This document shows positions 3,365-55,221 of a stretch of 64,000 bases of DNA, one piece after another (the first letter of the stretch is position 1; the number at the start of each line of letters is the position of its first letter). The notes under the pieces were generated by a model. It was given only the letters and a program-made list of their open reading frames with translations, made no database searches and was not told the origin of the DNA. A program made the translations under genes and the position numbers. Source of the DNA: Minisyncoccota bacterium (lineage in GTDB: Bacteria; Patescibacteriota; Minisyncoccia; JAHIHE01; JAGLIN01). The stretch spans positions 392 through 64,391 of the forward strand of contig JAQVBZ010000006.1 of the NCBI GenBank assembly GCA_028690055.1, read 5' to 3'.

Positions 3365-3472
3365 ATGGAGTAGCAAACTTTAGTCTGCGCTGCTATCCCA
3401 TGCGGATAAATCACAATTATATATCGCATTTGAGCACGTAAAGCAACAGCGCGGGTTCAAACCCGCTACTCC
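3365..3472. repeat. R2 element copy A (107-bp imperfect palindrome with GGAGTAGC...GCTACTCC termini)
   Basis: It has 8-bp terminal inverted repeats, subterminal hairpins (GCGGGTTCAAACCCGC) and a central GCGGATAAAT motif. It is homologous to the copies at 40218, 41123 and 55094. Confidence 0.8.
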
Positions 3473-38943: not shown

Positions 38944-40011
38944 TTATTTCAGGCGATAGACTTTGTTCGGGAGTTTCTCAAAATTTTTCTTGTTCTGCAG
39001 ATTGAGGACGACAGTATTTCTCTTGACTTGTCTTCGTCCCATAACCTCTTTGATAATTTCCTCCTGATCCATTGTCCCACCTTTTTCTTTCATTATTTCC
39101 ATTATAACATCAAGTACCACTCCAGGTCTATAACCCCATTCCTTCAGAGCGTAAATTCCGCGTCCGATCAGCACAAAACGGACATCCTTGATAAGCTCAT
39201 TGTGGACAGTTTGATTGTTGGTCGGTTTCTTGCTCGTCCAAAAACCGTTGATTTTGCCGGTAATTTCCGTAAAGTGCAGTGGCTTATCTTCTCGCTTGAG
39301 CGCGAGATAAGCCTTGTCTTTGACACTCTTAGGGTTGATATGCGGCCATTTGTGATGTCCCCACTGCCCGAGAATATTTTCCAACACGAGCTTGTTCACG
39401 TCCAGATAGGAACGGATCGACTCGTGCGAAAATTCATTCATACCTTCTTTCTTCACGCTCTTGCGCGCCAGCTCCACCAATTCATTGAAGCTTAGGCTCT
39501 TTTTGGTTGTCCGAAAATAATCTTCCAAAATCTCCAAGGTCTTTTCAAAAATCTCCACACCACTCGTTTCATAAAAATAAAATTTCTTATGACTCAGGCC
39601 CTCCTTGGATTTCTGGATAGACGGATCCAGGTCCAAAAGTAAAACAACAATCTGCTTGTTCAGATTTTTATCTCCTCCATCAAAAAGACATTTGACCAAC
39701 CGATCTTCTCCGACCAATCCGCCACTTTCCTCGATGACATTCTTTACATAATCGAACACCCTCTCCAAATCATACTTCACGACATTCGCCTTGAGTTTGG
39801 CGATAGATTCCGTTTCAATCTGCCTGACCCGCTCGCGGGTAATATCATACTCCTTGCCGATCCGATCCAGCGTCTGTACACCTTTGCTATCAAGATTGTA
39901 TCTCTTGATAATAACATTGCGTTGTCTGTCGCTCAATACTTTGAGCATATCAAAAACCAACTTGTTAAGGTCGATTTTTAAATCGCCTTTTCCTTCTAAT
40001 CGCTTGTTCAT
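38944..40011 (-). CDS. Putative transcription factor: N-terminal sigma-70 region-4-like HTH plus C-terminal HARE-HTH (RNAP delta-like) domain
   Basis: The N-terminus (LSDRQRNVIIKRYNL...TLDRIGKEYDITRERVRQIETESIAKLK) matches sigma-70 region 4. The C-terminus (FTEITGKINGFW...RFVLIGRGIYALKEWGY) matches the HARE-HTH pattern. It ends 18 bp upstream of the membrane-protein gene. Confidence 0.5.
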   Translation of the reverse strand: MNKRLEGKGDLKIDLNKLVFDMLKVLSDRQRNVIIKRYNLDSKGVQTLDRIGKEYDITRERVRQIETESIAKLKANVVKYDLERVFDYVKNVIEESGGLVGEDRLVKCLFDGGDKNLNKQIVVLLLDLDPSIQKSKEGLSHKKFYFYETSGVEIFEKTLEILEDYFRTTKKSLSFNELVELARKSVKKEGMNEFSHESIRSYLDVNKLVLENILGQWGHHKWPHINPKSVKDKAYLALKREDKPLHFTEITGKINGFWTSKKPTNNQTVHNELIKDVRFVLIGRGIYALKEWGYRPGVVLDVIMEIMKEKGGTMDQEEIIKEVMGRRQVKRNTVVLNLQNKKNFEKLPNKVYRLK

Positions 40012-40217
40012 ATGTTTTATAATTTATCCTTTAATATCAAAAATAGTACTGCCATAATATATCACGATTAAAAAGAGGTGTCAAGCTTTTGCAATTTAAG
40101 AAACGCATTATACCATTTTTGCAAAATATTATTTTAATCAAAAATACCATTCCGTCTTGTTCGAAATGCGTACTAGCCCGAAGGATTCGGAGAGTAAATA
40201 AGATATTACATCTACAT

Positions 40218-40324
40218 GGAGTAGCGGGATTTATCCCGCGCGGCTATCACAAGCCGATAAATGCGCTATATACATTCCTTTTTTCCTGCGTGGAACAACT
40301 GCGCAGACTGAAGTCTGCTACTCC
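40218..40324 (+). repeat. R2 element copy B
   Basis: It has GGAGTAGC...GCTACTCC termini and internal hairpins (GCGGGATTTATCCCGC and GCAGACTGAAGTCTGC). It is the reverse complement of copy C. Confidence 0.85.
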
Positions 40325-41122
40325 ATTTTATATATCAACCAGTGAGGAGAAGAAATAAAGAATATTTAAATCTTATGTGGACCGGGTCTGGAGACCACGC
40401 TCCGGCAAACGCAAAAAAACAGCGAACCCGAAGATCTGCTGTTTTTATGCGGGAGCAGATTTGAATCTACTCCATCTCTGCGCGGGAACAGGCTTAAACC
40501 TGTTCTTTCTCTTAAACGCCTACAAACTTTCGATTGAAGACTTTTCCAAAACCGCAAAGGTTTGTGGGTTTGGAAAAAGATTTAGGGAGGGCAGTTATTA
40601 TACCCCAAACCTCCCCAATTGCGTTTTTTTAATTGCTACATTTTTGAAAGCTTTCATCGGAATACTATATACTTTTGGGTCCTCGCAAGTTAGTATCAAG
40701 CTCCGAAGCTCCTTATTGTTGTATGCAAGAGATAAATAATATCCGTTTGCACACACTATGATTACAGTTCCTATGGGAATGGGAAGTTCGTTGACCCATT
40801 GAACATTTTTCTCTTCTATCTCCACTCCTTCTTCCAAAAAAACCCTTTACATCTTCTACAGTAAAAAAATTCATAATTCTCCTCCTTTTAGGTGTTTTTT
40901 TGTTTCTATTATTTTATTCTTTTTGACTTAAGAGCTTAACCGTAATATTTTACAATTAAATCCTTAATCAAAGATTTTTTTAAAAAGCTCTCCTTACTAA
41001 ACCAGGGAGGATAACGAAGGCGATTTTGTTTTTTCTTTCGGCGATGGGAAACTATAATATAATTTATGTCCCGAACGATTAAACTCTCTCCTTCGTAATT
41101 CTCGCTGGTTTATATATAAGGT

Positions 41123-41229
41123 GGAGTAGCAGACTTCAGTCTGCGCGGTTGTCCCACGCGAGAAAGAAGAAATATATACCTCGCATTTTTCGGCTTGTGA
41201 TAGCCGCGCGGGATAAATCCCGCTACTCC
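41123..41229 (-). repeat. R2 element copy C (inverted relative to copy B)
   Basis: It matches the reverse complement of 40218-40324 at nearly every position. Together the two copies bracket 770 bp of non-coding DNA. Confidence 0.85.
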
Positions 41230-41359
41230 ATGTAAACGGAATTTCCTATGTAACTCCAGATTCCTTAGTGATAAATAACGAATGTGGCACTATTTTTCAT
41301 TCATAACTTGCCATCATAGCACAGCATTACATATTTGTCAAGTATTTTCTTTACAACCC

Positions 41360-41388
41360 TTGACTTCTTCCTAAAAATCATCTAGAAT
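41360..41388 (+). promoter_or_regulatory. Sigma-70-like promoter of the atp operon: TTGACT, 17-nt spacer, TAGAAT
   Basis: TTGACT is at 41360-41365 and TAGAAT at 41383-41388. This is ~37 bp upstream of the atpB start. Confidence 0.6.
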
Positions 41389-41424
41389 GCCTCTGTTATT
41401 AAGTAAGAAAGTAAATCAGAAGAA

Positions 41425-42168
41425 ATGGAAATTTCTATCGCAGCAGAGACAGTTACTCATATTCTAGGAATACCGATTACAAATTCCCTGCTAGCCTCAT
41501 TACTCACTACAGTGGTTCTGGTAACCATAAGCTATTTTGCTACCAAAAATCTGAAAGAAGTCCCGCGCGGGATACAGAGTTTCATAGAATATGCTGTTGA
41601 GAGCCTATATAATATGATTCAGGACGTGACGGACGACAAGGAAAAGACTTATAAGTTCTTCCCTTTCGTTGCCACGATTTTTTTGTTTATAATCACCTCC
41701 AACTGGATGGGACTTCTTCCCGGATACGGCACGCTGGGAATTTACGAAGAAACAGCAGAGGGCGAGCAGATTCTGGTGTCATTCTTCAGGTCTGCCAACA
41801 GTGACCTCAATTCCACGATCGCTTTGGCCGTCGTCGGCGTATTATCTATACAGTTGATGGGAATCGCAGTTTTGGGTTTTGCGAAATATAGCAAGAAATT
41901 CCTCAACTTCAGCTCTCCTATCGCTTTTTTCATCGGTCTACTGGAAATCATCAGTGAGATCGCCAAGATGATTTCGTTTTCATTCAGACTTTTCGGGAAT
42001 ATATTCGCGGGAGAAGTCCTACTAACCGTCATAATGACCCTCGCGCCATTTGTGGCGCCACTGCCTTTCTTTGGATTGGAGCTCTTCGTGGGATTCATTC
42101 AGGCGTTAGTGTTCGCGATGCTTCTACTTGTCTTTATGAATATAGCGACTATGGAACACGAGGAATAA
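41425..42168 (+). CDS. atpB: F0F1 ATP synthase subunit a
   Basis: The conserved Arg-containing helix (FSFRLFGNIFAGEV) and five TM helices are present. It is the first gene of the atp cluster. Confidence 0.9.
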   Translation: MEISIAAETVTHILGIPITNSLLASLLTTVVLVTISYFATKNLKEVPRGIQSFIEYAVESLYNMIQDVTDDKEKTYKFFPFVATIFLFIITSNWMGLLPGYGTLGIYEETAEGEQILVSFFRSANSDLNSTIALAVVGVLSIQLMGIAVLGFAKYSKKFLNFSSPIAFFIGLLEIISEIAKMISFSFRLFGNIFAGEVLLTVIMTLAPFVAPLPFFGLELFVGFIQALVFAMLLLVFMNIATMEHEE

Positions 42169-49819: not shown

Positions 49820-50041
49820 TTATTTCTTCTTCTTAGCAGCGACTTTCTTCTTAGCGGCCGGTTTCTTCTTAGCAGCGACTTTTTTAACAGTCTTCTTGGC
49901 AGCTACCTTCTTCTTCGGGGCAGCTTTCTTTACAGCCTTCTTAACAGTCTTCTTTACAACTTTTTTCACAGCCTTCTTGGCTACCTTCTTCTTCGGGGCA
50001 GCTTTTTTAGCAGTTGTCTTTTTTGTTACCATTTGAAACAC
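49820..50041 (-). CDS. Lysine/alanine-rich histone H1-like DNA-binding protein (KKAA/KKTV repeats)
   Basis: An AGGAGGTG RBS lies 7 nt upstream of the ATG at 50041. The 73-aa product is almost entirely K/A/V/T repeats and a terminator follows downstream. The DNA repeats themselves generate the antisense ORFs. Confidence 0.7.
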   Translation of the reverse strand: MFQMVTKKTTAKKAAPKKKVAKKAVKKVVKKTVKKAVKKAAPKKKVAAKKTVKKVAAKKKPAAKKKVAAKKKK

Positions 50042-55093: not shown

Positions 55094-55199
55094 AGGAGTT
55101 GCAGGTTTTAACTTGCGCGATTGTCACAAGCCGATAAATGCGACGTATAATTACCCCGCGCGCGCGTAGGATAGCAGCGCAGGTTAAAACCTGCTACTC
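55094..55199 (-). repeat. R2 element copy D
   Basis: Its reverse complement begins GGAGTAGCAGGTTTTAACCTGCGCTGCTATCC and ends ...GCAAGTTAAAACCTGCAACTCC. It has the same hairpin and GATAAATGCG architecture as the other R2 copies. Confidence 0.8.
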
Positions 55200-55221
55200 C
55201 GCTTAAGGTACGGTTTTCCTC

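Follow-up and report, generated by a model that had tools for sequence, protein, structure and literature searches.

Four R2 repeats in a Patescibacteria contig as probable REPINs of a family linked to RAYT genes

The stretch of DNA considered here (the window) comprises 64,000 nucleotides of a Minisyncoccota bacterium (Patescibacteriota; contig JAQVBZ010000006.1, positions 392 to 64,391) and carries four copies, A to D, of a palindromic repeat of about 107 bp designated R2. It is proposed, with a probability of about 0.85, that R2 is a REPIN, i.e., a head-to-head (HH) heterodimer of repetitive extragenic palindromic sequences (REPs) bearing the GTAG tag, and that it belongs to a Patescibacteria family with a cognate REP-associated tyrosine transposase (RAYT). 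REPINs have been defined as doublets of inverted REPs that RAYTs mobilise (PMC3337134, PMC3116915, PMC5581495). R2 is non-autonomous, with the tags (T/C)GGAGTAGC at its outer ends and a spacer of ~60 nt between its two REPs. As judged from sequence comparisons, the cognate enzyme would be a small (~175-aa) RAYT of the HUH/Y1 type, whose own gene is flanked by R2-type REPs. The original prediction, made from the letters of the window, had described R2 as a small, non-autonomous, palindromic repeat of a mobile type to which a transposase is relevant, and this general description is supported.

Each R2 is built of two inverted terminal modules, which consist of YGGAGTAGC, a 12-nt hairpin, and GCGC, and which are placed around ~60 nt. 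In copy B, the outer REP reads GGAGTAGC-GGGATTTATCCC-GCGC, and the inner REP reads GCGC-AGACTGAAGTCT-GCTACTCC. The termini GGAGTAGC/GCTACTCC, noticed earlier as shared 8-bp ends, are present in all window copies with the exception of the left tag of D, which is GGAGTTGC. The four elements are real and can be aligned over their full length with a mean column identity of 80%, although the coordinates first assigned to A and D were 1–2 nt off. A profile built from the four finds exactly four full R2 copies in the window (E = 1e-27 to 1e-33) and, in a search of the whole window, no fifth copy above noise; the half-site pattern GGAGTAGC-N4-TT-N6-GC occurs there 16 times against 3.4 expected. Copies B and C had been taken for exact inverse copies; they are indeed inverted, but they match at 96 of 107 positions rather than exactly, and other copy pairs are 65–75% identical. 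Self-complementarity amounts to ~65% in each element, in agreement with the earlier view of them as imperfect palindromes. A flavodoxin-like gene (stop 3491, minus strand) is followed after 18 nt by copy A, which also lies 81 nt 5′ of a sufC-like gene, and copy D comes 21 nt downstream of where a Mur-ligase-like gene ends (stop 55222, minus strand). At the site orthologous to that of copy A, R2 is kept in two relatives, L037 (97% identity) and L046 (76%). The density of four copies in this 64 kb may be compared with up to six within 5 kb in locus L004.

The internal organization of R2 was examined on 15 aligned copies (alignment A2) with 500 shuffles and slid controls. A model in which the termini are paired and two local hairpins are formed leaves 97.7% of the cells paired, while in the slid controls this value is 27–50%. 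Under the same local-hairpin model, 7 pairs and 30 cells are changed on both sides, which was equalled by none of the 500 shuffles, so the subterminal hairpins seen in the original prediction are real and covary. In this alignment, each module has a 7-bp stem and a 2–4-nt loop after the tag. No covariation was detected for the pairing of the left arm with the right arm, where 397 of the 500 shuffles were as good for the outer arms and 497–500 for the inner arms. Since the hairpins covary and the arm-to-arm pairing does not, each end of R2 can be regarded as an independently maintained module of tag and hairpin; likewise, inner and long-range helices that do not covary speak against a four-way junction, a long hairpin, or a cloverleaf.

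The same modular character is seen in a larger set of 86 unique elements. The tag GGAGTAGC is invariant or nearly so both there and in the 15 aligned copies, whereas two different hairpin types are combined in 82 of the 86 elements, being drawn from a small alphabet (AGGTT, GGGAT, AGACT, and GGGTT); 145 of 172 hairpins have pairs at every one of their five variable stem positions. The bases flanking the tag are also restricted, with T or C at position −1 in 92 of 94 copies and A or G at position +1 in all 94. Inside each GCGC, the family alignment reveals ~17 nt on one side that mirror those on the other, with a variable centre between them. As for the central core, which had been reported as common to the elements, it is conserved among the copies of this genome but variable across the family.

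These data bear on the idea that a structured RNA is the product or the source of R2, be it a tRNA-like short interspersed element (SINE), a small RNA, or a cis-regulatory element; an origin from a tRNA-derived SINE or a structured RNA had also been raised in the original prediction. R2 does exceed shuffled sequence in folding stability (z = −2.4 to −4.7), its hairpins covary, and many copies are located inside transcribed 3′ regions. Nevertheless, a structured RNA is a very improbable explanation. No tRNA gene was found by ARAGORN, and Rfam searches gave no relevant match either for the whole window at the gathering threshold or for 40100–41350 at E ≤ 1. Covariation is confined to the two terminal hairpins, the sequences of which behave as interchangeable modules, and the T-loop-like hairpin once singled out in copy A belongs to a set of stem variants that can replace one another and whose loops vary. 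Moreover, no T-run terminator follows the hairpins, and the orientation of the elements relative to the adjacent gene is random (26:24).

The family to which R2 belongs was collected with a pattern that fixes the tag and the GCGC clamp at either end (24 specified bases). In a one-genome-per-species collection, it was found in 11 stretches, including 10 true loci in metagenome-assembled genomes (MAGs) assigned to Patescibacteria, Paceibacterota, or ‘Saccharibacteria’; a further 69 loci came from metagenomes, and viral contigs gave no matches. A profile run on the genome and metagenome loci yielded 142 copies, 113 of them full length, with the tags invariant. All four window copies and the 113 full copies elsewhere have the form of an inverted doublet. 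The module occurs in other forms as well, as 24-nt singlets and 56-nt mini-doublets, and the spacers range from ~8 nt (L009, L015) to ~60 nt. Copies 93% identical to C are present on other contigs, without any similarity in the flanks. The full copies are predominantly extragenic: 101 of the 113 (89%) are located outside open reading frames (ORFs) of at least 100 aa, against an ORF coverage of the DNA of 76%, and the majority face the 3′ end of a gene.

A few observations accompany this collection. Several R2-family copies sit at contig ends. The stretch L010 (GC-rich, labelled ‘Planctomycetales’) turned out to be an unrelated long inverted repeat and was excluded from the family; the repeat in question (L010:7306–7423) is long and perfect, starts with GGAGTAGCCGTACGG, and might be a GTAG-type repeat of another phylum.

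The link between this family and RAYT genes comes from loci in which such genes are found next to R2-type elements. In L005, a 175-aa ORF located between two R2-type copies matches Pfam Y1_Tnp with 40.8 bits (cutoff 23), and its best PDB match is the E. coli TnpA-REP (4ER8, E = 5.6e-8), with the HxH (HUH) motif and the catalytic Tyr aligned; the Pfam and PDB comparisons concern the L005 protein only. By tblastn with this ORF, homologs were revealed in four further loci selected at the DNA level (L079, L057, L049, and L015). In all five, modules of tag and hairpin stand within tens of nucleotides of a 170–175-aa gene at either end, whether single or as doublets of 56 or 107 nt, and the flanking elements are ~640–900 nt apart. 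All five proteins pass the NCBIfam equivalog model NF047646, ‘REP-associated tyrosine transposase’, with 87–115 bits (cutoff 80), and fail the IS200 model with 24–33 bits against a cutoff of 55. The R2-linked RAYTs are mutually only 40–61% identical, and the tag that stays constant across them is thus far more conserved than either the enzyme or the stems. In a reverse test, four RAYT homologs were picked by protein similarity alone (L093–L096), and two of them, L094 and L096, are flanked by GGAGTAGC, GGATTAGC, or GGACTAGC together with hairpin modules, i.e., by the same tags or their one-base variants.

In L094, a tandem array of at least nine REP singlets (GGCGCAGACTAAAGTCTGCTAATCCTAA, 28-nt period) was noticed directly 3′ of the RAYT gene (L094:8535–8800), where the tag is represented by its variant GGATTAGC in place of GGAGTAGC.

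The neighbourhood of RAYT genes and the behaviour of the copies are also informative with respect to the view that R2 is a classical miniature inverted-repeat transposable element (MITE) of the terminal inverted repeat (TIR) type moved by a DDE transposase, with B and C together forming, as put forward in the original prediction, a composite element or a decayed insertion sequence (IS). A length of ~107 bp, an imperfect terminal inverted repeat of ~40 nt, a multicopy state, and extragenic placement are what one would look for in such an element. However, the search for target-site duplications of 1–8 nt in 94 unique copies found none, the counts being within the permutation range, and the palindrome-extension test was negative. 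Covariation is seen within each terminal hairpin separately and not between the left and right arms taken as one unit, and single 24-nt modules and 56-nt doublets exist alongside the full element. Finally, the gene adjacent to the repeats in relatives encodes a Y1/HUH RAYT and not a DDE transposase. A DDE-driven MITE is therefore hardly credible, and the arrangement of B and C, considered next, provides little comfort to its composite version.

Copies B and C are located inside a 1,413-nt gap (40012–41424) between two divergent genes, one sigma-like and the other atpB, and the inverted repeat that they form is longer than R2 itself, with arms of 173 nt that are 83% identical (Table 1). The AtpB of the window has an exact counterpart in NCBI, annotated as Candidatus Pacebacteria and encoded on a 64,434-bp contig, which places the organism in the CPR/Patescibacteria; an exact look-up of the sigma-like protein gave no record. 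The interval of 770 bp first given for the pair measures 798 nt from element to element, or 754 nt if the extended arms are taken as its limits. In the rest of the family, similarity to B is confined to R2 and a few nucleotides on either side, whence the flanks shared by B and C are specific to these two. A block containing R2-C, which is co-extensive with the extended arm, is missing from two relatives; its last ~55 nt include a degenerate ‘GTCAT...GGAATCTGG’ hairpin element (41251–41286), and its outer end corresponds to the head of a degenerate hairpin copy of a second repeat family described below. A terminator-like hairpin is found on the minus strand at 40168–40148.

The history of the gap can be followed in four relatives, L089–L092 (AtpB 86–77% identical), where the order of VirD4-like, DUF8128, and sigma-like genes, the gap, and atpB is kept. 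Their gaps of 1.5–3 kb (L089:5361–7000, L090:5451–7000, L091:4004–7000, and L092:5528–7000) hold small minus-strand ORFs without Pfam matches that are mutually unrelated, except for two weakly similar ones within L091, and no homologs of these ORFs were found in the gap of the window. At the position of B, L089 bears a decaying R2 ortholog, in which the right REP is intact, the left REP is degenerate, and the centre is shortened. At the position of C, L090 and L091 are empty, and L092 has a 24-nt degenerate REP singlet. Parts of the B–C spacer align with relatives that lack C. From these comparisons, it is concluded that the B/C pair most likely represents a local inverted duplication of a composite block containing R2. 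C would be an inverted copy of a ~172-nt block of B (R2-B with its flanks), as far as the direction and mechanism can be deduced from sequence, and B is probably the older copy. For a composite element or a decayed IS, as formerly suggested, the interior should be cargo or a transposase remnant, but it consists of ancestral sequence syntenic with relatives devoid of C, gave no sign of a transposase with a family profile, and is bordered by flanks unique to B and C.

Judging by this synteny, the spacer appears to be an ancestral intergenic slot for variable genes, in which its own small gene has decayed. It had earlier been said to contain no convincing gene, and no Pfam or RAYT match was obtained, but the spacer is not wholly bare: it contains a frameshifted orphan ORF and a conserved hairpin, and a conserved promoter-like site points into it. 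Beyond a run of 7 T, the orphan ORF resumes as a 79-aa ORF (40598–40837). It has no Pfam match, and among 1.84 billion representative proteins its sole similarities, which are weak, are to a single unit of a repeat in two giant proteins. The latter, P0242 (1,724 aa) and P0243 (1,617 aa), are uncharacterised and contain 8–10 units of an IPxGxxxxxCxNGY repeat. No Rfam match was found for the hairpin at 40541–40579, and the degenerate partial R2 copies that had been suspected at about 40470–40500 are not significant (nhmmer E = 1.5). The promoter-like sites at 41313–41341 and 41360–41388 are arranged back to back, and the leftward one faces R2-C, the orphan ORF, and R2-B; a conserved leftward site of this kind would imply that the gap is a transcribed cassette slot.

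Table 1. Coordinates of the R2 copies and of features in and around the gap between the sigma-like gene and atpB (numbering of the window)
Feature	Position	Strand	Remarks
R2 copy A (REPIN)	3367–3472		nhmmer E = 8e-27
R2 copy B (REPIN)	40218–40324	+	nhmmer E = 3e-32
R2 copy C (REPIN)	41123–41229	−	inverted relative to B; profile search and B/C alignment
R2 copy D (REPIN)	55095–55200		nhmmer E = 2e-29
Basic REP module (example)	40218–40241	+	24 nt: 8-nt tag GGAGTAGC, 12-nt hairpin, GCGC clamp
Sigma70_r4/HARE-HTH (sigma-like) gene	38944–40011	−	one side of the gap
atpB	from 41425	+	first gene of the ATP-synthase operon; other side of the gap
Extended inverted-repeat arm, B side	40174–40346	+	R2-B with 44-nt outer and 22-nt inner flank
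Extended inverted-repeat arm, C side	41101–41273	−	repeat search and alignment
B–C spacer	40325–41122	−	798 nt; apparently an ancestral variable minus-strand gene slot, decayed here
Block absent in L090 and L091	41112–41286		~172–175 nt: 11 nt, R2-C, ~55 nt
Degenerate second-superfamily copy (GTCATYCYGA...GGRATCTGG)	40147–40194	+	abuts R2-B; read from the sequence
Promoter-like site, sigma-like gene (TTGACA-17-TATATT)	40056–40084	−	conserved in relatives; R2-B starts 134 nt distal
Promoter-like site, atpB (TTGACT-17-TAGAAT)	41360–41388	+	conserved in relatives; R2-C ends 131 nt distal
Promoter-like site (TTGACA-17-TATGAT)	41313–41341	−	conserved; points into R2-C and the spacer
39-nt near-perfect hairpin (CTTTTCCAAAACCGCAAA...TTTGGAAAAAG)	40541–40579		sequence kept in 4 of 4 relatives, surrounding genes differing
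Frameshifted orphan ORF	40598–40874	−	53 aa from ATG 40874; strong ribosome-binding site AAAGGAGGAG

Two other explanations of the B/C pair should be considered. According to the first, a REPtron, i.e., a RAYT gene flanked by REPs, once occupied this place; B and C would be its REPIN flanks, and the gene between them would have been lost or have decayed beyond recognition. The RAYT genes of relatives are indeed flanked on both sides by these elements, at a spacing (~640–900 nt) that would accommodate the 798 nt between B and C, and a decayed orphan ORF is all that the spacer contains. On the other hand, no RAYT remnant was detected there, the scores of the family profile being negative in all six frames, and those parts of the spacer that are syntenic with the four relatives are associated in them with unrelated genes lacking Pfam matches and not with a RAYT. 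In addition, C is missing from L090 and L091, and the similarity of the B and C flanks points to local duplication. Taken together, this makes a former REPtron unlikely. According to the second explanation, the repeats bound an invertible, phase-variable segment with a promoter or a small gene. The geometry is suitable, with 173-nt inverted repeats around ~750 nt between two divergent promoters and with promoter-like sites inside and adjoining. Yet across five independent assemblies of the population (>99.6% identical), the 1,413-nt gap recurs with unchanged length and orientation at the consensus level, the arms are only 83% identical, and no recombinase gene is adjacent, so that next to no likelihood is left for an inversion switch.

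The region of ~40000–42000 coincides with a switch in gene orientation, the genes on its left being on the minus strand and the atp operon on its right on the plus strand, and the GC skew changes sign locally there. Since the cumulative skew is still downward after 49 kb, this region is not evidently a replication origin.

Several facts weigh against the reading of R2 as a REPIN with a cognate RAYT, and against the history proposed for B and C. No RAYT was found in the 64-kb window, either by tblastn or with a profile from 120 RAYT homologs in six frames. The connection of RAYT with REP is one of adjacency in other genomes, whose R2 copies are 65–93% identical to those of the window. Around two of the four homologs selected by protein similarity, L093 and L095, the flanking hairpin repeats are different ones, which means that the RAYT clade is not uniformly tied to the R2 tag. 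As to the module, the bases G7 and C8 of the GTAG tag can join the hairpin stem, while in classical descriptions the tag is unpaired. The direction from B to C rests on few relatives, and the REP remnant in L092 is also compatible with C being ancestral and having been precisely deleted in L090 and L091; such a precise loss is conceivable because it is what would be expected of HUH-type excision.

If R2 is a REPIN, the lack of a RAYT within 64 kb makes the four copies of the window passengers dependent on an enzyme acting in trans. By analogy with E. coli TnpA-REP and IS200/IS605, on which the proposed mechanism is modelled, R2 would be mobilised by a RAYT that recognises tag and hairpin on single-stranded DNA, e.g., on the lagging-strand template, and that may cleave and rejoin the DNA at this site. 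It is proposed that cleavage and rejoining of single strands could allow doublets to be copied or excised without target-site duplications.

To our knowledge, REPIN–RAYT systems have been characterised almost entirely in Proteobacteria, where they are discussed as long-lived, vertically inherited intragenomic populations of ‘replicators’. The assignment of R2 extends their host range to a phylum with tiny, reduced genomes, in which repeats would be expected to be purged. It also supplies an annotation for a recurring intergenic repeat that fragments assemblies of the Candidate Phyla Radiation (CPR), and the constancy of the tag across very divergent RAYTs may be useful for predicting the recognition of DNA by the enzyme. 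As concerns the window, its repeats are explained, and neither a novel RNA nor a decayed IS is any longer needed. A wider proposal is more tentative, and we would rather bet against it than for it: REPIN–RAYT systems could be widespread and of long standing among Patescibacteria, whose genomes are ultra-small and streamlined, and could follow rules of their own there, with a 9-nt tag YGGAGTAGC constant across ~40%-identical RAYTs, near-obligatory heterodimers with a small hairpin alphabet, and composite blocks (R2 with a second-family hairpin) mobilised or duplicated near promoters. If this were true, the model of a ‘domesticated transposase plus sequence population’ would reach far beyond Proteobacteria, and a tractable comparison would become available for the persistence of such populations in genomes of ~1 Mb.

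The window also harbours a second, more abundant superfamily of hairpin repeats, in which TGTCAT[YC]C[YC]GA is followed by a variable loop and then by GRGGRATCTGGGAAA. Its members start, on either strand, at 853, 1089, 1178, 1321, 1382, 1604, 7266, 8506, 26578, 26626, 26691, 26867, 45320, 48529, 48642, 52021, 62192, and 62329, and their stem covaries (ATTCC/GGAAT, ATCCC/GGGAT, ATCCT/AGGAT, and ATTTC/GAAAT). Two tandem units of ~290 bp at 1083–1607, which are 89–91% identical, are built from such GTCAT... hairpin elements. In L095, a ~95-nt repeat ending in GTGTCATTCCG is present at either side of the RAYT homolog, and in view of these flanks the second superfamily may be a second class of RAYT substrate. 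Of a different nature are the repeats with an 18-nt period at 49827–50020 (TTCTTCTTAGCAGCGACT and variants), which probably correspond to a Lys/Ala-rich low-complexity stretch on the minus strand.

With regard to the literature, GTAG REPs, HH heterodimers with 20–100-bp spacers, REP clusters, and REPtrons have been defined by Di Nocera et al. in 2013 (PMC3733652), and their survey lists Proteobacteria, Cyanobacteria, Chloroflexi, and PVC, CPR not being among them. Among the papers searched, none was found to combine RAYT or REPIN with Patescibacteria, and the one mention of RAYT together with CPR concerns an archaeal locus. The R2 family thus represents a known kind of element in a phylum for which no prior description was found.

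Among other small palindromic, non-autonomous intergenic repeats of ~100–150 bp, R2 resembles the PATEs derived from IS200/IS605 and TIR-type MITEs such as Correia/CREE, RUP, and ERIC. PATEs are similar to it in that they depend on a Y1 HUH transposase recognising subterminal hairpins. In contrast to IS200/IS605, the protein linked to R2 passes the RAYT model and fails that of IS200, and R2 has no asymmetric left and right ends. MITEs of the Correia and RUP types differ from it in having target-site duplications and DDE parents, neither of which is seen for R2.

The resemblance is closer to the GTAG REP super-family (PMC3733652), whose members have stems of 5–13 bp and loops of 2–20 nt with GTAG at one end, form HH dimers with 20–100-bp spacers bearing complementary ends, and occur in clusters, in tandem arrays, and around RAYT genes. 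R2 fits this super-family, of which the survey has 24 families, by its general description. The REP sequences and bacterial interspersed mosaic elements (BIMEs) of E. coli, with their enzyme TnpA-REP (RayT; 4ER8; PMC3479197), share with R2 the GTAG-tagged hairpin and, in BIMEs, the dimers of different REP types (Y/Z combinations), and TnpA-REP is the best structural relative of the CPR RAYT; at the same time, the similarity of the proteins is low, and R2 hairpins are much shorter and AT-richer. As compared to the REPINs of Pseudomonas fluorescens SBW25 (Bertels & Rainey 2011; PMC3116915, PMC3337134), R2 has a CPR and not a gammaproteobacterial host, a tag of 8–9 nt (YGGAGTAGC) and not just GTAG, short stems of 7 bp, a strong predominance of heterodimers (82 of 86), and no RAYT in the window. 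In other respects, the two are alike: both are extragenic and present in several copies (four in the window in the case of R2), neither makes a target-site duplication, RAYT genes are flanked by the repeats (for R2, at loci of other Patescibacteria), and some copies of either kind have been kept at the orthologous positions of relatives that have diverged.

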